Shown: positions 3,139-37,055 of the stretch, one piece after another
Position numbering within the stretch: position 1 is the first letter of the stretch
How the letters are laid out: each line of letters begins with the position of its first letter
Sequence record: NC_031928.1
Length of the DNA: 64,000 bases
DNA from: Escherichia phage WG01
Strand: one strand, 5' to 3'
Made by a program: the position numbers and the translations under genes
Notes under the pieces: model-generated
The model's input: only the letters and a program-made list of their open reading frames with translations
The model's database searches: none
Told to the model about the DNA's origin: nothing

Positions 3139-3359
3139 GTATTGTTCTCACGAATTGTTTGTTCAGCATATTCTAGCATTTCTTCGGAAGAAGCAAACAC
3201 GTCGTCAAGTTCCATGGCCCATGAAACACCTTCAGAATATTCAGAAGTGACATACATAGTTCCGGTATACCAAGAACCATCCACGTCCCATTCTACATTA
3301 CCGAACCAGCCATCGCCAATATGAAAATCATGTTTATACATTTTCATCATTATAAGCAT
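3135..3359 (-). CDS. hypothetical protein (74 aa)
   Basis: ATG start; T4 46.1 position. Confidence 0.4.
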   Translation of the reverse strand: MLIMMKMYKHDFHIGDGWFGNVEWDVDGSWYTGTMYVTSEYSEGVSWAMELDDVFASSEEMLEYAEQTIRENNT

Positions 3360-3597
3360 CCTTGATGCATGATTCAGCCATATGAATTAATGTTTCTGGA
3401 GTATCATCTACCATTACATTAAAGCTAAATTCCACAGCCCAATCAGTAGCAACATAAACTTTAATAAGCTCGTTGGTATCGCGAGTGCTCACGGCTTCAA
3501 ACCAGAACTTAATGATATTCGTTTGGTTATCGTCATCAATAACGATGCAGTCGTGTTCTAGTTCAAGGCCTGATTTTTTGAATTCATCTAAAGTCAT
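3334..3597 (-). CDS. hypothetical protein (87 aa)
   Basis: ATG start overlapping gp47 stop; T4 46.2 position. Confidence 0.4.
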   Translation of the reverse strand: MTLDEFKKSGLELEHDCIVIDDDNQTNIIKFWFEAVSTRDTNELIKVYVATDWAVEFSFNVMVDDTPETLIHMAESCIKDAYNDENV

Positions 3598-4616
3598 CGT
3601 GTAACCTCATTATAAAGTTGTGCGGCCATAGTCTTAAGGGCTTTAACATCGTCTTCAGTGTGGCCATCAGGAAGGGCATCGATATAATCATACATCATAT
3701 CCAAGAGGGACTTAACTTCATCTTCCTCTTCAGAATCATCGATATCAACACTGTTATCTACCTTAGACACAATACGTAAAGAGTGAACAACCTTTTCAAG
3801 TTCAGATTCGAACTTGGTAAGCCCGTCATCAATTTTATCGACTATAACACGAACCGCAATATTTGTAAAATCTTTGTAATCGATAGTCGCATTCGGATAA
3901 TGAATCTTACGATGCCAACAAGTTTCATTGATGATGAAATCCATTTTATGGGTTTCTGTATCGAAAATCCAGAAGCCACGAGGGTCGTTCTCATCACCTG
4001 CAGTCAGGGTCCATGGCGTACCAATATACTTGACGTTTGCTGCATCAGAAATGGTGTGGAAGTGACCAGACCATACTTGCTTATACTTCTTAAGGAAATC
4101 AGGTTCTAAACCATGTGATTTCATTCCTTTATAGAAATAGAAACCATTTAATTCCCAGTGGCCAATACAGAAATCGGCAGTAGTATTTTTGATATGGTCC
4201 ATGATATCGGTCGTGTTTTCTTCACACATCCATGGAATCAAATCAATTTCTGTACCATCAAAATTAACCGTAGTAGGTTTCTCAATAACCTTGATATGGT
4301 CGTATTTACCCAGAACTTCAGAAGCAGCGTTCGGAGTCAATGTGTTTTTGTAGTGCATATCATGGTTACCAACGACCGTATACATGGTAATGCCGTTGGC
4401 TTTAAGCAAATCGGAGATTTCGCGAGCGAATTCCATACACTTATGGGTAATTGCTTTACGAACGTCAAAGATATCACCGTATTGAATCCATACAGTAATG
4501 CCATTTGCTTTAGAATAATTAATAGCGTCTTGGATACCTTGACGTTGGATATTTTGTACCCACACATCATCGGCCTTCACTCCAAGGTGCCAGTCACCTG
4601 TGTTTAATATTTTCAT
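3594..4616 (-). CDS. 47: recombination endonuclease subunit gp47 (SbcD/Mre11-like)
   Basis: ORF track start is TTG; ATG at 4616 gives 340 aa starting MKILNTGDWHLG; calcineurin-type phosphoesterase motifs DWHLG, GDIFD, GNHD. Confidence 0.92.
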   Translation of the reverse strand: MKILNTGDWHLGVKADDVWVQNIQRQGIQDAINYSKANGITVWIQYGDIFDVRKAITHKCMEFAREISDLLKANGITMYTVVGNHDMHYKNTLTPNAASEVLGKYDHIKVIEKPTTVNFDGTEIDLIPWMCEENTTDIMDHIKNTTADFCIGHWELNGFYFYKGMKSHGLEPDFLKKYKQVWSGHFHTISDAANVKYIGTPWTLTAGDENDPRGFWIFDTETHKMDFIINETCWHRKIHYPNATIDYKDFTNIAVRVIVDKIDDGLTKFESELEKVVHSLRIVSKVDNSVDIDDSEEEDEVKSLLDMMYDYIDALPDGHTEDDVKALKTMAAQLYNEVTR

Positions 4617-4798
4617 AAGCCAAGCGCCGTTATTGCAATGCAAAATAAAATTATTGAAATGAACCCGTCAGGAGTGGAAAAGAATCCTATCCAACAAGCT
4701 CGTGTGAATGTGTAGAATGCCATGAATAACACGACATATCCTAAAAGTAGTTCCATATGTTCTCCTCAGTTGGTTCATTTTATCATCCAAATATAAAG

Positions 4799-4819
4799 CA
4801 AAAAAGGAGCCTAAGCTCC
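4799..4819 (-). terminator. rho-independent terminator
   Basis: minus-strand hairpin GGAGC-TTAG-GCTCC followed by T6. Confidence 0.6.
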
Positions 4820-5539: not shown

Positions 5540-5731
5540 TTAATCCTTTGGAGTCAATTCAATAGTGAAGTAGAAATTAGCGTTCTCAACATGATAACGG
5601 TAATCTACGTTATTGTCAGGAGAAGTGAATTCAATATTCCTGACGTTAAGTGGGTCAATATCAATAGGAAGACCTTTAACATCCCGTAATATCAATTTAA
5701 TAAAATAAGGGAGTGCTTCGAAGTCTTCCAT
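5540..5731 (-). CDS. hypothetical protein
   Basis: ORF track start is GTG inside gp55; first ATG after the gp55 stop is at 5731. Confidence 0.3.
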   Translation of the reverse strand: MEDFEALPYFIKLILRDVKGLPIDIDPLNVRNIEFTSPDNNVDYRYHVENANFYFTIELTPKD

Positions 5732-5753
5732 TCCATCTAAAAGTGGAGTGATA

Positions 5754-6311
5754 TTAATCTGATGTTCCATATAAAAAATCCAGTTCACCAACTTTAGGTT
5801 GGGCACTCTTATCAGACCCTGGTGCTTTAGTTAAAGAGGTTTCATACTGAGTCATTTTGTCGTAGATATCTTGGATAAAGGTTTCATCTGCAATACCTAC
5901 CATGTCGTCATCATTACTGTCATAGACATTATGGACGAAGTAGCTATATTTCTTTGCCATTTCTTTACGTTCTTTTTTGATACGCTGAACGAAGGCATTA
6001 AAACAAGCCATAGTGATATATGCATGTGGGTTGTCGTATTTTGTTTCGTCGAAGTTGTGAAGACCTTTAATCGAAGCTTCGATTCCATCAGCAATCATTT
6101 CTTGCTTCCAAGATTGGGTATATCCTGAGAAGTTGAAACGTTTACTTAGTCCTTCAGCAATGAGCATAATAGCCAAGCCGATAACGTCGTTCTGGCGAAC
6201 TATTTTATTAGGATCGGTATTTTCTCTGAGTTCTGTTTTCCATTGGGTGATAGCTTTCAGAAGCTCCTTATTATTTACATAGTTATTTTTAGTCAGTTTA
6301 ATTTCGGTCAT
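5754..6311 (-). CDS. 55: late-transcription sigma factor gp55
   Basis: 185 aa, ATG confirmed; near-identical to T4 gp55 as recalled ([55 protein letters not shown]). Confidence 0.95.
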
Positions 6312-6377
6312 TGTTACCTCAGATAACTCAAATCATAGGTCTATTATATCATAGTATTTGAAGACCCTTTTAAAGCA

Positions 6378-6641
6378 TCAACGGAGTAAGCAATAAGCCT
6401 GAAATACGGTTTCAAGGATTTGTGTGAACTCGGAATAAGAAATTGTATCAGTACATCCATGTTCAGACATATATCCACAAAATTCTTTAAAAAGACCTGG
6501 ATATTCGCGATGGTTGTATTTGGAAATATGAGACTTCCATACTAAAGAAGTCTCACCACAAACAAACTCAACATCCATACGGTTATCTATTAAGAAAAAT
6601 CCGAGACCTTCGTAGGCGAGGGTGGTGGATATGGGTTTCAT
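6378..6641 (-). CDS. hypothetical protein (87 aa)
   Basis: ATG start; several Cys/His. Confidence 0.4.
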   Translation of the reverse strand: MKPISTTLAYEGLGFFLIDNRMDVEFVCGETSLVWKSHISKYNHREYPGLFKEFCGYMSEHGCTDTISYSEFTQILETVFQAYCLLR

Positions 6642-6904
6642 TGTAGGAATCGAGCTCCTTCTAGTGCGTCATCAAGATTATCAAACTCGTCGACATAATC
6701 AACACCGCCAACTTCGTCCTTCGCATAAAGCCAGTACTGTTTAAATTCGTATTCGATGATGAAGTGGTCACCCTCAATCTGGAGAGCCCCATCACCATTA
6801 AATTGAACTGCATAACCTGTAAAGCGGACATCATTCAAGAGTTCTTCTTTCATAGCAATCATTTCCAAGTTTTTATCGTAATTAGAGAGTTTTATTTTAA
6901 TCAT
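6638..6904 (-). CDS. hypothetical protein (88 aa)
   Basis: ATG start, ATGA overlap with neighbour. Confidence 0.4.
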   Translation of the reverse strand: MIKIKLSNYDKNLEMIAMKEELLNDVRFTGYAVQFNGDGALQIEGDHFIIEYEFKQYWLYAKDEVGGVDYVDEFDNLDDALEGARFLQ

Positions 6905-7230
6905 TTCGCTGCCTTAACAATTTTCAGGTCAACGAATTTTTTCTTACGTTGGTTTTTCATACGACGGATGGTTTTATCCGTGATTTCACCAGGGGCCCAA
7001 GCTTTAGATTCTACACCAAAGGCAGCGACATCGAATTCATCGAGGATATATTGAACCAGGATTTCACGAATACCGTTCTTACCAATTTTCTGGTCTTTAG
7101 AGTGCATGATAGGTAACAGTTCAGCAACCCATTGGTCAAGAACCTGAGGAGTTACAAAACCTGTTTTCATCAGTTCGTTTACTTTATCGAAAGCGAAAGA
7201 GTTCAGTACGTTTTTAATAGCTTGTGACAT
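6901..7230 (-). CDS. hypothetical protein (109 aa)
   Basis: ORF track start is TTG; ATG at 7230 has GAGGA RBS and an early promoter just upstream. Confidence 0.4.
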   Translation of the reverse strand: MSQAIKNVLNSFAFDKVNELMKTGFVTPQVLDQWVAELLPIMHSKDQKIGKNGIREILVQYILDEFDVAAFGVESKAWAPGEITDKTIRRMKNQRKKKFVDLKIVKAAK

Positions 7231-7264
7231 AATAATTTCCTCAGTTTTAAAGTTATAATCCGTA

Positions 7265-7300
7265 GGACCATTATACTCTGGTCCCAAGAGTTTGTAAACT
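7265..7300 (-). promoter_or_regulatory. T4-type early promoter cassette
   Basis: minus strand GTTTACA, 17 nt, TATAAT; dyad GGACCAGAG/TATAATGGTCC. Confidence 0.6.
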
Positions 7301-7499
7301 ATTTTTGACTCATTGCACCTTTCCAGCCTTCGTACATAGATGCAGCTGAAATTAATAAAGCGCCTGAACAACTTGAATATTTGTGGTTCCAAAACCAGTT
7401 CAGAAAAACTTCGTCATCAATACCTTGGGCTATCATATTTTCAAAGAACTGACGACGAGCTTCAGCAATTCGCTGTGATAATTTAGATTCAGGATTCAT
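7299..7499 (-). CDS. hypothetical protein (66 aa)
   Basis: ATG start. Confidence 0.35.
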   Translation of the reverse strand: MNPESKLSQRIAEARRQFFENMIAQGIDDEVFLNWFWNHKYSSCSGALLISAASMYEGWKGAMSQK

Positions 7500-7638
7500 T
7501 TAAATTTTCCAGTTTCCGTGTTTATCAATGAATTTAATCCAGTCATTTACTGACCACGTGGTTGTATCGCCCTTTGGACTAACATTTAAAGTGTATAGTC
7601 CTTGCTTAAAAAGCATTCGTTTGATATTCATATTTTCC

Positions 7639-7932
7639 TCAGCTATAACGATAACATTCGTTTGATTTACGTTTTGCAACTCGATGAGAAGTATTGTAAT
7701 CAGGTTCATCGTCATTGTAAACATCTTTTTTCAGCTTTCTCACTTCTTTACGAAGCTGGCGGTTCATTTCGTTCTTAACTTCAGAATCAACACCGCGCAT
7801 ACGTTTCCACTTGTCGGAACGGAAGATATTTTCTTCAACCAGTTCCTGACTTACGCCGTCCGGTGCTTTACGACGTCCGGAATAATAAAAATCTTTTACA
7901 GACAATTCTTTACGACGAATAGTTTTACCCAT
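7639..7932 (-). CDS. hypothetical basic protein (97 aa)
   Basis: ATG with GAGGT RBS; Lys/Arg-rich. Confidence 0.4.
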   Translation of the reverse strand: MGKTIRRKELSVKDFYYSGRRKAPDGVSQELVEENIFRSDKWKRMRGVDSEVKNEMNRQLRKEVRKLKKDVYNDDEPDYNTSHRVAKRKSNECYRYS

Positions 7933-7934
7933 AG

Positions 7935-8189
7935 TTACCTCAGCAGTTTGTATCCAATAAGATTTTTAATGTATTGGACATCTTTGACATCCAAATCTAA
8001 CTTAATATCTTTCAGACGGTCGCACAGGGTCAAAAAGGTTACATGTTTCCAATTCTTCACTGGGCAACAATAAGTCTTAGGACCATTTGCAATTTCAATA
8101 TTCTTATCAGTGACGGTGAGAAAAATCAGGCGCTCATCATCCAGATTAAGGGTAATGATATTTTTCATTGAATGTAATTTCAGACTCAT
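7935..8189 (-). CDS. hypothetical protein (84 aa)
   Basis: ATG start. Confidence 0.4.
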   Translation of the reverse strand: MSLKLHSMKNIITLNLDDERLIFLTVTDKNIEIANGPKTYCCPVKNWKHVTFLTLCDRLKDIKLDLDVKDVQYIKNLIGYKLLR

Positions 8190-8368
8190 GATTTAATTTC
8201 CTTAGCTACTGAACAAAATAAAGAACGGTCGCACACCATCAATGGAGCATCAGGGTGAGTCAAAGGTTGATACCATACATCGAGATTTGTTACCTTTGTT
8301 ACTTGAACAGGGTAGCCATTTACTGAATAATACTGGTCGGCTTTAATTTCTTTATCTTGGATAGTCAT
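8186..8368 (-). CDS. hypothetical protein (60 aa)
   Basis: ATG with GAGGAG RBS. Confidence 0.4.
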   Translation of the reverse strand: MTIQDKEIKADQYYSVNGYPVQVTKVTNLDVWYQPLTHPDAPLMVCDRSLFCSVAKEIKS

Positions 8369-8387
8369 AATGTTCTCCTCATGTGTT

Positions 8388-8428
8388 GATAGGATAGACT
8401 ATAACACGTGAGGAGAGGAAGTAAATAC
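8388..8428 (-). promoter_or_regulatory. early promoter cassette (degenerate copy)
   Basis: ATTTAC -35-like and TATAGT -10-like, same layout as the other cassettes. Confidence 0.4.
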
Positions 8429-8745
8429 TAATCTTCAATTAAATCTTGGTCATAACCAAGTTCAATCAAAAGCGATTTGAAGGCAGGAATATTTTCTATT
8501 TTCTTATTATCGACAAATATGACAGGATAGCGTATCGCTAAGCTCTTGAAGCCTGCACGTTTGGCCAATGATACTATAAGAGGCTTGTCGTATACTGCGC
8601 CTGACGGCGTCTGGTTAATCACAGGATAGAAAGTATGTGGGATAGAAAGGGAATTTAGGAGCGATAGAACAGCAATGCACCCTGGACAGCGCATGACTGT
8701 CTCAGGGATACCGTAAATCTCAATTTTAGTTAACTTTTGGTCCAC
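8428..8745 (-). CDS. glutaredoxin/thioredoxin-fold protein (NrdH-like?)
   Basis: 105 aa; GTG start with AAGGAG RBS; CPGC after a beta-strand-like KIEIYG; C-terminal YPVIFVDNKKIENIP resembles the glutaredoxin P-x-I-F motif. Confidence 0.5.
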   Translation of the reverse strand: MDQKLTKIEIYGIPETVMRCPGCIAVLSLLNSLSIPHTFYPVINQTPSGAVYDKPLIVSLAKRAGFKSLAIRYPVIFVDNKKIENIPAFKSLLIELGYDQDLIED

Positions 8746-9022
8746 AGGAAATAACTCCTTGGTAGTCCCAAGTTTTTAGAACTTCGTCTTCATTAGTTCC
8801 GTATGGGACGTAAATCTGGATAAGGAACCCGGTATCATCAAAAGAGAAATAGACAGTAGGTTTAATACCATGAATCTCTGACAGAGCATAGATGTCCTTG
8901 AGGTCGTCTTCCTTACCTTTAAAGAATTCAGGGTTCAGGTCACAGTCATGGAAGTACCAATCATCACCAAACTTGTCCCAAGCGGTCCAATTCAAAGCTA
9001 CATATTCTTCAAAACGTTTCAT
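8726..9022 (-). CDS. hypothetical acidic protein (98 aa)
   Basis: ATG with AAGGTGA RBS. Confidence 0.4.
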   Translation of the reverse strand: MKRFEEYVALNWTAWDKFGDDWYFHDCDLNPEFFKGKEDDLKDIYALSEIHGIKPTVYFSFDDTGFLIQIYVPYGTNEDEVLKTWDYQGVISCGPKVN

Positions 9023-9234
9023 TCTTTCACCTTCATCATTTTTGCAATAACACTATGAACAGCCTGGATTCGTTTGTCGAACTCGGACCCTTCAAGACCT
9101 TTTTCAGTACTCAGAGCACCAATAATCATGAACAGCAATCCAAACGGAATAGCCAGGATTAAAAGGCATACGATAAACAGAACCAATGTTATATTAGCCA
9201 GGATATCAGAAACAGCATTACGAAATTTATTCAT
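9019..9234 (-). CDS. small membrane protein
   Basis: ORF track start is GTG; ATG at 9234; one long hydrophobic helix. Confidence 0.35.
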   Translation of the reverse strand: MNKFRNAVSDILANITLVLFIVCLLILAIPFGLLFMIIGALSTEKGLEGSEFDKRIQAVHSVIAKMMKVKE

Positions 9235-9355
9235 TAAAGAACCCACATGTTAGTTACAACAAATAACCATTGAGCAGGATACTCAACACCCATAATACGC
9301 ACCGCATCATTCAGAGATTCGGCTAAAGCATAAAATGTGTAGCCATAAAAATTAA

Positions 9356-9829
9356 TCATTTAAGCGATTTCCTCAGTTGTTTTTTAAATGAATCGACCAT
9401 TTGTTTCTTAGTGTCAGATTCATTATAAGTCATTCCATGTGAAAGCATTTCAGCAATCATTTCTTCCTTACCTAACCTGCTGAACTCTTTGGTTTTATCA
9501 GGAACGAAATTAGGATGGATATTGTTTTCAGTATAATCAGCTTTCAGATAGACCAGCAAATTCTCTAACCATTCGAGGTAGTCAACGTTTTGACCTTTAA
9601 GACCAGAACGGTTGAACTTATGCTTCATTTGTCCTTCTGCAGCATTACACAGATTACATAGTAAACCACGAACCTTACCGGCTTTTGGCCCGTTCAATTC
9701 ATGGTCGTGGTCAAGGTGGTTACTTTGAACATCAGGGTTTAATTCACGTTTACAAATCAAACACTTACCACATTGTGCATCATAAAGTTTTTGTTTTTCT
9801 TCTTTGTATAATTTGCCGGTCAACAACAT
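9356..9829 (-). CDS. 49: recombination endonuclease VII (Holliday junction resolvase) gp49
   Basis: 157 aa, same length and near-identical to T4 endo VII as recalled (MLLTGKLYKEEKQK...CNLCNAAEGQMKHKFNRSGLKGQ). Confidence 0.95.
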   Translation of the reverse strand: MLLTGKLYKEEKQKLYDAQCGKCLICKRELNPDVQSNHLDHDHELNGPKAGKVRGLLCNLCNAAEGQMKHKFNRSGLKGQNVDYLEWLENLLVYLKADYTENNIHPNFVPDKTKEFSRLGKEEMIAEMLSHGMTYNESDTKKQMVDSFKKQLRKSLK

Positions 9830-9864
9830 AATAAACCCTTACCATTATTAGATAAGGGTATTTA

Positions 9865-10062
9865 TTATTTTTCAAATGTACTATAAAACGAGCGATGCAA
9901 CCGTTTAAATTGACGAATCATCTTTTTAGTAGGACGGGTGTATAACCCTACACAAGTGGCCATAAACTGATCAGTAGGACTTCCTTTAATAAGAAGTTTC
10001 CAGACTTTACCGCCATTTAACTTTTCAGTATAAATCAGTTCAGTTTTCATAGTAAAACCCAT
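9865..10062 (-). CDS. hypothetical protein
   Basis: ORF track start is TTG; ATG candidates at 10062 and 10050 with weak RBS. Confidence 0.3.
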   Translation of the reverse strand: MGFTMKTELIYTEKLNGGKVWKLLIKGSPTDQFMATCVGLYTRPTKKMIRQFKRLHRSFYSTFEK

Positions 10063-10094
10063 ATTCCATATCAATTAAATCATTGTTTGAAGGT

Positions 10095-10127
10095 TCATTA
10101 TACTCTATTTCGGAATCGTTGTAAACG
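10095..10127 (-). promoter_or_regulatory. T4-type early promoter
   Basis: minus strand GTTTACA, 17 nt, TATAAT. Confidence 0.6.
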
Positions 10128-10181
10128 GGTTCCTCTGGCTCGGTAGGTTCTATCGTATCCCACCGAGCGACATACCATGGC

Positions 10182-10490
10182 TTAACGGTCACACCACCAA
10201 CTACTTACTTCAAAATCAGGTTCACCGTGTTCCCAGTACCAAGGACCGACTGGATGCCAATCACCGTGTTCATCTTCTTCAAATTCTTCAGATTCAAGGC
10301 CAACGTATTGCCATTGGACTTCGTAAGCGGTGCCGCCGATTACAACAGTGTTCTCGCCATATGGATGGGCTACAGCAAAGTCTATACCTTCTGCTTTAGC
10401 CAACCAAACCATATATTCGTATAGTTTATATTCCAGGTCATCTTCGGTACCATCACCTAGAAAAATGGTTTGTTCGTTTAATTCAATCAT
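10182..10490 (-). CDS. hypothetical acidic protein (102 aa)
   Basis: ORF track start is TTG; ATG at 10490 overlaps the upstream small ORF stop (ATGA). Confidence 0.35.
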   Translation of the reverse strand: MIELNEQTIFLGDGTEDDLEYKLYEYMVWLAKAEGIDFAVAHPYGENTVVIGGTAYEVQWQYVGLESEEFEEDEHGDWHPVGPWYWEHGEPDFEVSSWWCDR

Positions 10491-10648
10491 TTGAAGTTCC
10501 AGAATGAAGCACCAACCAGAAATAAAGGCCAACAAATCATAGACGTCAACCACCAACAAAAGTCACCTGAATCATCTAATTTAGCTAGGGTCTTAGCATA
10601 ACCAATACCGATGATAAGATACAAAACAACCAACATTAATTCAATCAT
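10487..10648 (-). CDS. small hydrophobic protein (53 aa)
   Basis: ATG overlapping nrdC stop (ATGA); MIELMLVVLYLIIGIGYAK; not in ORF track. Confidence 0.3.
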   Translation of the reverse strand: MIELMLVVLYLIIGIGYAKTLAKLDDSGDFCWWLTSMICWPLFLVGASFWNFK

Positions 10649-10908
10649 TTGAAATACGCTCGCAGTTGGTCAAAGCCACCAATATGACTTCCATCAGGGG
10701 CAAATACTTGCGGCATGGTCAAACCGATTTGAGATTCGCGACCAAGCGCAGCCAGGAGTTGAGCAATCTTCTCATCATCAAATACGCCTTTTTCCGGCAT
10801 CACGTTAATGAATTCGTAAGGTTGTTTCTTAACATCAAGCAGACGTTTGGCATTATCACAGAAAACACAACGGTGAATATTTGAATCATAACCATAAACT
10901 TTAAACAT
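10645..10908 (-). CDS. nrdC: glutaredoxin-like thioredoxin NrdC
   Basis: 87 aa, CVFC active site; near-identical to T4 NrdC as recalled. Confidence 0.9.
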   Translation of the reverse strand: MFKVYGYDSNIHRCVFCDNAKRLLDVKKQPYEFINVMPEKGVFDDEKIAQLLAALGRESQIGLTMPQVFAPDGSHIGGFDQLRAYFK

Positions 10909-35988: not shown

Positions 35989-36453
35989 TTATTTGATTTG
36001 TTTAGCAGACCAGATACGGTCTTTGATGATTTTCTGAATATCTTCAACATACTCTAAGTCGTGAGCATGTGGATTATCTTTGAAGCTATGTGCTCGTGCC
36101 AGTTTCTGGCCTTCTGTTTTGATTACTAAAAGCTCTTTAAGAATTGCTTCATACTTAGAAATAATTCCTTTGGCGATATTTTTTTCTTGAGCGGCTTTAG
36201 GGTCCGCTTTTGACGCAGGTGCTTTACCTGTAGCTTTCTGGAACAATTCACCTGATGCAGCTAGGCTTTTAAAAACTCGGCTAACAGTATTGGCATTAGT
36301 AAAACCTTCGGCTTTAAAATCTTTAATAAAACGGAAACGTTCTTCATCAGAGGCGTCTTTGTAAGAATATTTACCTGCTTGAATTGCTGCAATCGCAGCG
36401 GCTTTTACATCTGAACTAGATTGTTCAGTCAAAAATTCATTGTAAGTTTTCAT
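35989..36453 (-). CDS. internal-protein-like packaged protein (CTS-tagged, 154 aa)
   Basis: N-terminus [10 protein letters not shown]; late promoter ~27 nt upstream. Confidence 0.6.
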   Translation of the reverse strand: MKTYNEFLTEQSSSDVKAAAIAAIQAGKYSYKDASDEERFRFIKDFKAEGFTNANTVSRVFKSLAASGELFQKATGKAPASKADPKAAQEKNIAKGIISKYEAILKELLVIKTEGQKLARAHSFKDNPHAHDLEYVEDIQKIIKDRIWSAKQIK

Positions 36454-36479
36454 ATTATTTCCTAAGTTAGTTTACTACA

Positions 36480-36487
36480 TATTTATA
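36480..36487 (-). promoter_or_regulatory. late promoter TATAAATA
   Basis: exact TATAAATA on the minus strand ~27 nt upstream of the ATG at 36453. Confidence 0.55.
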
Positions 36488-36488
36488 C

Positions 36489-36518
36489 AAAAAAAGCCCA
36501 ACCTTTCGGAAGGGCCTT
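36489..36518 (-). terminator. rho-independent terminator ending the tRNA/stable-RNA transcript
   Basis: same hairpin as 35356..35384 (GNRA loop) followed by T7. Confidence 0.55.
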
Positions 36519-36559
36519 TAACCTAGGGTAACCTTGTCGGGGTTCCACCTGCTAGGCAA

Positions 36560-36898
36560 GTGTTTGTACGAAACGCCGGGATTCGAACCCGGTTATTAAG
36601 TAGTTGACGCCACTCAATATTTTTAAAAGGCCATATCTCGACCATATCCGAACGTTCCGTCAAAAACGCTACTCGGCTTACGGCAAAGATATTTCCTCGA
36701 ATCGATAATTCGGTGCGCCGTTTCTGCTGTGATGTAAGGGGACGTTAACAGATCGTAAAGATTTGTTAATGCCAGTCCTTACTCAGGGAACATCAGTCCG
36801 ACGACTTACCGGTAGCGACCCGGTTTCTTGTTTGTTGCGCCGGTGAATGCTGGTAATCAGTCTTCATACGACGGCTTGACTATATAATAGTCTTCATT
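36560..36898 (-). ncRNA. candidate stable RNA(s) downstream of the tRNAs
   Basis: ~340 bp with no ORF of 60 aa or more; minus-strand T-arm-like hairpin CCGGG-TTCGAAT-CCCGG at ~36575-36595; no full cloverleaf found by eye. Confidence 0.25.
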
Positions 36899-36973
36899 TG
36901 GTATCCCGCCCTGGGATCGAACCAGGACCGCAAACTTAGAAGGATCGTATGCTATCCATTACACCAGCGGGAC
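36899..36973 (-). tRNA. tRNA-Arg (anticodon TCT)
   Basis: minus strand cloverleaf with anticodon loop CTTCTAA, T-loop GGTTCGATCC and encoded CCA. Confidence 0.8.
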
Positions 36974-36978
36974 GTAGT

Positions 36979-37055
36979 TGGTGACCCAGACCAGATTTGA
37001 ACTGGTAACCTTTCCCTTATGAGGGGACTGCTGCTAACCATTGAGCTACAGGGCC
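36979..37055 (-). tRNA. tRNA with CAT anticodon (Met or lysidine-type Ile)
   Basis: minus strand GGCCCTGTAGCTCAATGGTTAGCAGCAGTCCCCTCATAAGGGAAAGG...GTTCAAATC...CCA. Confidence 0.7.

Follow-up and report, generated by a model that had tools for sequence, protein, structure and literature searches.

The gene 55-49 region in T4-like phages

In phage T4 (NC_000866), the region between gene 55 (late sigma factor) and gene 49 (endonuclease VII) carries, in addition to a series of small genes, the redoxin gene nrdH and the genes for the anaerobic class III ribonucleotide reductase (RNR), nrdD and nrdG. The present report concerns the equivalent region in a 64 kb stretch of DNA (hereafter the window) from Escherichia phage WG01 (NC_031928.1), a phage with a genome of approximately 170 kb, of which some 106 kb lie outside the window. 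An earlier note on this DNA, made from its letters alone, had proposed that nrdD and nrdG are missing from this region, and had set this against the arrangement in T4. The T4 layout it described is confirmed by the T4 genome record, nrdH, 55.8, nrdG, mobC and an nrdD gene containing the I-TevII intron all being located between genes 55 and 49.

Other phages carrying this cassette differ from T4 in detail. RB69 (genus Mosigvirus) has the T4 gene order with nrdG and nrdD adjoining gene 49, without mobC or the intron. In Klebsiella phages of the genus Jiaodavirus, the order is gene 49, nrdD, nrdG, a small open reading frame (ORF), 55.8 and a glutaredoxin gene, with the NrdD protein sharing 78% amino acid identity with that of T4. 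In RB49 (Krischvirus), nrdD and nrdG are also found downstream of gene 49, with extra ORFs between, and its NrdD is 61% identical to that of T4. Both nrdD and nrdG are targeted by I-TevII and by endonucleases of the seg and mob types, and the sequence alongside is co-converted (PMC2988022).

A survey of phage RNR enzymes based on hidden Markov models (HMMs) lists phages JS98, JS10, IME08 and vB_EcoM-VR7 as possessing 'nrdB-nrdA, class I' (Dwivedi et al., 2013, Additional file 1; PMC3653736), although it does not describe the locus, its junction or the polymorphism within the genus Gaprivervirus that are dealt with below. No explicit discussion of the absence, or of the anaerobic growth of such phages, was found in the literature beyond this survey. 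Lack of class III enzymes is normal throughout the JS98/Dhakavirus lineage, a well-sampled genus, and has been published as such: all annotated genomes of the genus show it, and the survey tabulates it. As it is already on record in this way, the finding is an ordinary one and as a discovery matters little.

Absence of nrdD and nrdG

From nucleotide identity, synteny and the taxonomy of its matches, the window is assigned to a JS98/QL01-type T4-like coliphage of the genus Dhakavirus (Straboviridae, Tevenvirinae). It corresponds roughly to positions 32-96 kb of Escherichia phage QL01 (NC_028847), to which it has 98% identity over window positions 1-25000 and 97.7% over the approximately 4.2 kb from 5700 to 9900. 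JS98, JS10, IME08, KIT01, AnYang and further Dhakavirus members share 92-95% identity with the region around the interval, and JS98 (EF469154) 92% over the interval itself. QL01, JS98, JS10 and IME08 (92-98% nucleotide identity) resemble the window in gene order and content, in the cassette-free junction of gene 49 with a small ORF and in the retention of nrdH.

The interval is bounded in gene order on the right by gene 55 (5754..6311, minus strand), so annotated in JS98 and QL01, whose product has 79% amino acid identity with T4 gp55 over 185 residues, and on the left by gene 49 (9356..9829, minus strand), whose product is 88% identical to T4 gp49 over 157 residues. The 6312-9355 span given in the earlier note coincides exactly with what lies between the gene 55 start (6311) and the gene 49 stop (9356). 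It is occupied by 12 minus-strand genes coding for proteins of 41-109 aa, namely 55.1-55.6, 55.8, nrdH, three ORFs of a type found in RB69 and JS98, and an ORF of 41 aa, in agreement with the dozen or so ORFs of at most 109 aa counted previously. Genes 55.1-55.6, nrdH and 55.8 all have T4 homologs, which lie there with identical order and strand between genes 55 and 49. Unlike the window, T4 has further genes separating 55.8 from 49, namely nrdG, mobC and an nrdD bearing the I-TevII group I intron, and it lacks the three RB69/JS98-type ORFs. The reading of the interval as a T4 block that has kept its glutaredoxin-like gene but is without nrdG, mobC and the intron-bearing nrdD was thus verified in each of its parts.

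Searches for the missing genes were made with both pairwise and profile methods. With tblastn against the whole 64 kb (E ≤ 10), exons 1 and 2 of T4 NrdD gave only noise (best E-value 0.27), as did T4 NrdG (best E-value 1.2). Profile HMMs for NrdD and NrdG were prepared from SP18, RB69, RB49, a Jiaodavirus and T4, that for NrdD comprising four phage NrdD proteins, and were run with the --max option on all six-frame stop-to-stop peptides of at least 20 aa. The best E-values obtained in the window were 2.2 for NrdD and 9 for NrdG, with phage SP18 as positive control giving 1346 and 320 bits, respectively. Both approaches bear out the lack of nrdD and nrdG between genes 55 and 49. The earlier note had allowed for frameshifted remnants in the interval; none was found with either approach, and as the six-frame search was negative with a working control, such remnants are excluded. 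Neither does any ORF of the interval exceed 109 aa, compared with approximately 600 aa for NrdD and approximately 156 aa for NrdG, so that, as claimed, nothing of NrdD size is present. Pfam analysis of the large early ORFs of the window identified no RNR, glycyl-radical or radical-SAM domain.

The same applies to mobile elements associated with the cassette in T4. A search of the whole window against Rfam at the gathering threshold identified two tRNAs and no group I intron, and at E ≤ 1 there was no match within 5700-10000. MobC and I-TevII gave no match above short noise by tblastn against the whole 64 kb (E ≤ 10), and none of the 12 interval ORFs matched HNH or GIY-YIG families in Pfam or PHROGs. 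These negative results agree with the statement in the earlier note that no intron or homing endonuclease signature is visible.

A copy of the genes elsewhere in the genome had also been envisaged. There is none in the window, and neither NrdD nor NrdG was detected by tblastn or HMM in the remainder of the QL01 genome (98% identical to the window), from which MobC and I-TevII are likewise absent; the annotation of the QL01 segments outside the window range includes NrdA and NrdB and no class III genes. Taking the QL01 remainder together with JS98, JS10 and IME08, it is probable that nrdD and nrdG are absent from this isolate beyond the window too.

The gene 49 junction

In the window, gene 49 is joined directly to the 41-aa ORF (junction at 9356..9359, minus strand), where a single ATGA provides both the stop codon of the former (TGA) and the start codon of the latter (ATG). 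This is the site of nrdD-(mobC)-nrdG in T4, SP18 and RB69. The junction sequence reads ...CGCTTAAATGATTAATTTT, and the overlap of the gene 49 stop with the ORF start ...CTTAAATGATTAATTTT. In T4, SP18 and RB69, an ATGA is likewise shared by the gene 49 stop and the nrdD start (SP18 boundary: ...GTTTAAAATGACAATTG), and nrdG ends (...AAACATGATTAA) in an overlap with the beginning of a small ORF (SP18_gp076/RB32ORF074c) which precedes 55.8 (SP18 boundary: ...GGAAACATGATTAAATTG). The stretch missing from the window is therefore exactly nrdD through nrdG: the start/stop overlap is kept, and gene 49 runs into the 41-aa ORF without any non-coding base in between. Repeats and palindromes that might represent a scar of deletion or insertion were limited to short families at chance level, none of them at the junction.

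When a 681-nt query spanning the junction was used, a contiguous match was found in 46 records (counted at no less than 80% coverage of the query). In more than 1000 other T4-like records, homology ends at query position 340, equivalent to window position 9359.

The 41-aa ORF itself (9234..9359, minus strand; phrog_3350, E-value 1e-22) was compared with SP18_gp076, the corresponding T4 gap region and its equivalents in QL01, JS98 and VR7. Its homologs SP18_gp076 and RB32ORF074c lie after nrdG in the cassette-bearing phages, and its equivalents are QL01 gp077 and VR7ORF080c. The JS98 counterpart differs in having 37 aa and no annotation. In T4, the small ORF downstream of nrdG (4330-4446 of the retrieved segment, minus strand) is split by a frameshift and unannotated, while being intact in SP18 (gp076), RB32 and the Dhakaviruses (phrog_3350).

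The cassette in Gaprivervirus

The genus Gaprivervirus has a sister backbone to that of the window with the same block of small genes, and one of its members, VR7, also shows the same arrangement of 55.8, a 41-aa ORF and then gene 49, with no cassette. The junction region of VR7 has 72% identity with that of the window overall, yet the two are identical over a stretch of 49 nt that runs from the terminal part of gene 49 into the opening codons of the small ORF. This identity within a divergence of backbone level (72%) speaks for one old event and not a recent import, and the possibility that VR7 recently imported a cassette-free allele from a Dhakavirus is ruled out by that same divergence.

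The Gaprivervirus phages SP18, VR20, VR25, RZ, DK-13 and PSD2001 are unlike the window, having an intronless nrdD-nrdG of the T4/RB69 type in a VR7-like backbone. In both flanking regions, SP18 shares 95-98% identity with VR7. The segment that begins at the 3′ end of gene 49 and takes in nrdD, nrdG and the small ORF is instead 92-97% identical to T4 and RB69. SP18 is not a lone re-acquirer of the cassette, as its recombinant junction is shared by 26 records, all of those checked belonging to Gaprivervirus.

Synonymous divergence (dS) of nrdD among T4, SP18 and RB69 is 0.28-0.35, compared with values from 1.0 to saturation for genes 49, 55, 55.5 and nrdC between genera. The mosaic structure of SP18 and the low dS of nrdD are the pattern that co-conversion driven by homing endonucleases would produce.

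The nrdG gene of T4, which adjoins mobC, has a different history. Against SP18 and RB69 nrdG it shows a dS of 0.73 and a nonsynonymous divergence (dN) of 0.18, where T4 nrdD exon 2 against theirs shows a dS of approximately 0.3 and a dN of approximately 0.015; the dS between SP18 and RB69 nrdG is 0.21.

The retained redoxin gene nrdH

The glutaredoxin-like gene of the interval, nrdH (8428..8745, minus strand), codes for a protein of 105 aa with 60% identity to T4 NrdH (E-value 3e-37) and a match to phrog_22 (E-value 3e-13), which is labeled 'thioredoxin domain'. The protein begins VDQKLTKIEIYGIPETVMRCPGC, with its CPGC motif at residues 20-23. The GTG start codon at 8745 is preceded by AAGGAG, and this layout of GTG and ribosome-binding site is kept in VR7, SP18, T4 and RB69. 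The CPGC protein with a GTG start to which the earlier note had drawn attention is accordingly real, with a conserved start.

In silico analysis places the CxxC motif at the start of helix 1, after the first beta strand, as is characteristic of the family. The Pfam Glutaredoxin model has a cutoff of 22.9 bits, which T4 NrdH passes (24.0) and the window protein, with 15.9, does not. The only relatives found in the PDB are the T4 glutaredoxin structures 1ABA and 1AAZ, and in this weak match (E-value approximately 1) the residues EIYGI of NrdH are aligned with strand beta-1 (KVYGY). A single-sequence AlphaFold2 model has a mean pLDDT of 48.6, too weak for a fold search; its beta-alpha-beta-alpha-beta-beta-alpha order fits the thioredoxin/glutaredoxin fold.

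In the GenBank/RefSeq records of JS98 and QL01, nrdH (4169-4486 and 4229-4546 of the retrieved segments, respectively) has been given an internal ATG as its start (MRCPGC..., 88 aa), which would drop the first beta strand. The GTG gives 105 aa, as annotated in VR7, SP18 and T4, and the NrdH proteins of VR7 and SP18 have no internal methionine. As EIYGI aligns with the first beta strand, NrdH must begin upstream of the ATG of the JS98 and QL01 records, and on sequence grounds the GTG is the better start, by which the deposited annotation is corrected.

Between the window and JS98, nrdH has 12 synonymous and three nonsynonymous differences (dN/dS 0.07), with the CPGC motif invariant. Such values indicate that nrdH is under purifying selection and maintained without NrdDG, an argument against T4-type NrdH being a subunit of that enzyme or a partner dedicated to it. 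NrdH would then not be a dedicated part of the anaerobic reductase, whereas a published table pairs NrdG with NrdH (Petrov et al., 2010; PMC2993671).

The C-terminus of NrdH is conserved among T4, Gaprivervirus and Dhakavirus (...LISLGYDQDLIED). RB69 NrdH (8090-8362 of the retrieved segment) ends early, with a divergent C-terminus (...FLNDKKQRYCRV, followed by the stop).

Origin of the cassette-free state

Taken as a whole, the best explanation of these observations, to which we give a probability of roughly 85%, is that the interval is the 12-gene block of Dhakavirus, from which the cassette is absent through one old deletion, with later re-acquisition in Gaprivervirus. A single deletion would have occurred in the common ancestor of the two genera, between the two ATGA overlaps that bracket the cassette. 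The cassette-free allele would then have been retained in all sampled Dhakaviruses and in VR7, and most Gapriverviruses would have regained a cassette of the T4/RB69 type through homologous recombination in gene 49 and near 55.8. As nrdD and nrdG are found at gene 49 in Jiaodavirus, RB49 and RB69, the ancestor seems to have had the cassette at this site, and Dhakavirus to have lost it by deletion. A broader proposal, which we hold tentatively and at somewhat less than even odds, is that the 49/55.8 site represents a long-lived presence/absence polymorphism of nrdD-nrdG, in which the scarless deletion became fixed in Dhakavirus and persists in VR7-type phages, while endonuclease-stimulated recombination repeatedly re-introduces the cassette into the sister lineage.

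A number of points weigh against this interpretation. The choice between deletion and never having acquired the cassette rests on parsimony over few outgroups and, with the cassette being mobile, its occurrences in Tequatrovirus, Mosigvirus and Gaprivervirus are not independent of one another and do not count as three. A mechanism of deletion is not proved by an ATGA microhomology of just 4 nt, as overlaps of this form are common in T4-type genomes, and the low dS of nrdD could in part reflect codon or selection constraint and not transfer alone. As 64 kb of approximately 170 kb are visible, absence from the rest of this particular isolate is a matter of probability, judged from its relatives. 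Both dependence on host NrdDG and the role of NrdH, considered further below, follow from general knowledge of the RNR classes.

The reverse polarity, in which phages without the cassette represent the ancestral condition, the Dhakavirus lineage never having had nrdDG here, and insertion of a mobile cassette gave rise to the arrangement of T4, RB69 and Gaprivervirus, is unlikely, although it has several features in its favor: the cassette crosses genera, as seen from the SP18 mosaic and from nrdD dS values of 0.28-0.35 against at least 1 in flanking genes, the small ORF borders the site in both states, and homing endonucleases target nrdD and nrdG. However, the divergent nrdD located downstream of gene 49 in Jiaodavirus (78%, same order) and RB49 (61%) fits vertical inheritance, and the possession of both class I and class III enzymes is usual in phages of facultative anaerobes (PMC3653736). 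Relocation of nrdD and nrdG to the approximately 106 kb outside the window could be imagined given the mosaic nature of T4-like genomes and the separation of the two genes by other ORFs in RB49, but is very improbable in view of the negative tblastn and unfiltered HMM results for the remainder of the 98%-identical QL01, where only NrdA and NrdB are annotated, and of the independent HMM survey, in which JS98, JS10 and IME08 have class I only. The chances are slimmer still that an oxygen-independent reductase of another class or of non-homologous origin, such as the class II NrdJ, replaces NrdDG. Several ORFs of the window and of QL01 have no known function and might be considered for such a role; against this, the large early ORFs lack RNR, glycyl-radical and radical-SAM domains, the interval ORFs are all of 109 aa or fewer, and class I is the only class given either by the annotation of QL01 or by the 2013 survey.

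That the interval holds nrdD and nrdG as frameshifted or decayed pseudogenes is scarcely credible. The earlier reading was made without search tools and the frameshifted small ORF of T4 shows that decay does occur in this region, yet tblastn at E ≤ 10 and the unfiltered HMM search (--max; peptides no shorter than 20 aa) remained at noise level. The interval is fully taken up by 12 conserved genes with family matches, and not one non-coding base separates gene 49 from the 41-aa ORF; this possibility is counted as refuted. The same verdict applies to the absence being an assembly artefact or a laboratory deletion, the probability of which is negligible. Deletion mutants of T4 in non-essential regions do arise readily, but the contiguous junction is shared by 46 independent records from various countries and hosts, diverged by up to approximately 10%.

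Other genes of the interval and its surroundings

Genes of the interval were called by homology to those of T4, JS98 and QL01 together with family matches (Pfam, PHROGs). All are on the minus strand and tightly packed, with several start/stop overlaps in the form of ATGA. Next to gene 55 lies a DUF7200 ORF (6378..6641; Pfam PF23830, E-value 1.8e-31; JS98 orf64) resembling RB69 ORF072c, which is not found in T4. It is followed by 55.1 (DUF5495; 6638..6904), identified with T4 55.1 by tblastn (E-value 5e-20) and by Pfam PF17599, and by 55.2 (DUF7570; 6901..7230), which at 109 aa is the longest in the interval; residues 1-107 of T4 55.2 align to 7230-6913 with 65% identity, and the product also matches Pfam PF24454. 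A 163-aa ORF with a TTG start called here by program was rejected as an over-extension upstream of the true 55.2. Gene 55.3 (DUF5490; 7299..7499; Pfam PF17593) has 74% identity with its T4 homolog, 55.4 (7500..7631; 43 aa; phrog_1871, phrog_24953) has 88% and 55.5 (DUF5499; 7639..7932; Pfam PF17603, E-value 4e-46) has 75%.

A second gene without a T4 counterpart, a DUF7290 ORF similar to RB69 ORF079c (7935..8189; Pfam PF23962, E-value 4e-42; JS98 orf70), precedes 55.6 (8186..8368; phrog_2283), which is 54% identical to T4 55.6. Beyond nrdH is the third, an RB69 ORF082c-like ORF (8726..9022; phrog_2749, E-value 2e-48; JS98 orf73), and then 55.8 (9019..9234), predicted to encode a small membrane protein of 71 aa from an ATG at 9234, with residues 1-59 of T4 55.8 aligning to 9234-9058. 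The alignment to phrog_1930 begins at residue 5 of the 75-aa ORF that results from a GTG start.

A scan of the region for sigma-70-like promoters gave 19 sites against 14.7 ± 3.9 expected, a total not above chance. One near-consensus sigma-70-type sequence (TTTACA-17 nt-TATAAT, 11 of 12 matches) is present at 7298-7270 (minus strand) in the 68-nt gap between 55.3 and 55.2, and is a candidate for the early promoter from which 55.2, 55.1, the DUF7200 ORF and gene 55 would be transcribed. The T4 late promoter motif TATAAATA was absent from the interval and at chance level across the window.

Upstream of gene 49, T4 Pin (161 aa), an inhibitor of the host Lon protease, is matched by its C-terminal 18 residues alone, within a DUF7279 ORF of 69 aa (9865-10074, minus strand), and full-length pin is not present at this position in the Dhakavirus lineage. 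Gene 49.2, which is present in T4 and SP18, is absent from the window (10040-10559, minus strand), where 49.1 abuts 49.3; VR7 has a MobE-like HNH gene at the 49.2 position. The product gp49.2 is labeled 'ribonucleotide reductase' by RefSeq and phrog_2294, a label without Pfam, NCBIfam or PDB support. It was considered as a partner lost together with NrdDG and set aside, T4 gp49.2 belonging to no Pfam or NCBIfam family and having a best PDB E-value of approximately 0.3 (DsbD-alpha); nothing is concluded from it.

In the Dhakavirus Escherichia phage vB_EcoM_005, an ORF of 324 aa sits at the position of gene 49 (3357-4331 of the retrieved segment). Its N-terminus resembles the GIY-YIG endonuclease I-TevII (27% over 122 aa, E-value 1e-5) and its final 13 residues match residues 85-97 of gp49, so that a seg-like endonuclease appears to have been inserted into gene 49. 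QL01 differs from the window in having an HNH endonuclease gene (36409-37026 of QL01) between gp47 and a-gt.2; at this location the window (4613-4810), like JS98, has only a 47-aa 47.1-like membrane ORF, making this endonuclease a presence/absence difference among phages that are 98% identical. The two tRNA genes identified with Rfam lie side by side at 36902-37055 (minus strand); three tRNAs have been reported for JS98-type phages (PMC2993671).

Implications for nucleotide metabolism and cassette mobility

The window also encodes NrdC (10645-10908), with 87% identity to that of T4. Its relatives encode NrdAB (located outside the window range in QL01), dCMP deaminase, thymidylate synthase and the nucleases DenA and DenB. 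Deoxyribonucleotides (dNTPs) would thus be produced by the aerobic NrdAB, with NrdC and NrdH acting as redoxins. Class I RNR enzymes need oxygen (PMC3653736), and phages of this type in the anoxic gut would for this reason have to rely on pre-existing host NrdDG and on nucleotides from degraded host DNA.

Records give duck faeces as the source of QL01 and chicken faeces as that of PSD2001. JS98 presumably originates from diarrhoeal stool in Dhaka. The success of such phages suggests that a phage-borne class III enzyme is an optional accessory.

To the known absence, this analysis makes modest additions, namely the scarless ATGA junction, its sharing with VR7, the Gaprivervirus mosaic, the purifying selection on nrdH and its corrected start. 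If the 49/55.8 site is indeed a long-lived polymorphism, the phage class III reductase would be dispensable for gut coliphages, with the host enzyme sufficing, and the function of 'NrdH' would not be tied to the anaerobic enzyme, at odds with the table of Petrov et al. (2010). With the cassette lost, I-TevII, MobC and SegH may also be deprived of their cleavage targets, and Dhakaviruses would in this manner be protected from marker exclusion by co-infecting T-even phages. The locus provides a clean natural experiment on whether faecal coliphages need a phage-encoded anaerobic reductase and, in the comparison of Dhakavirus and VR7 with the other Gapriverviruses, an instance of a metabolic cassette rich in homing endonuclease targets being lost and regained at gene boundaries.

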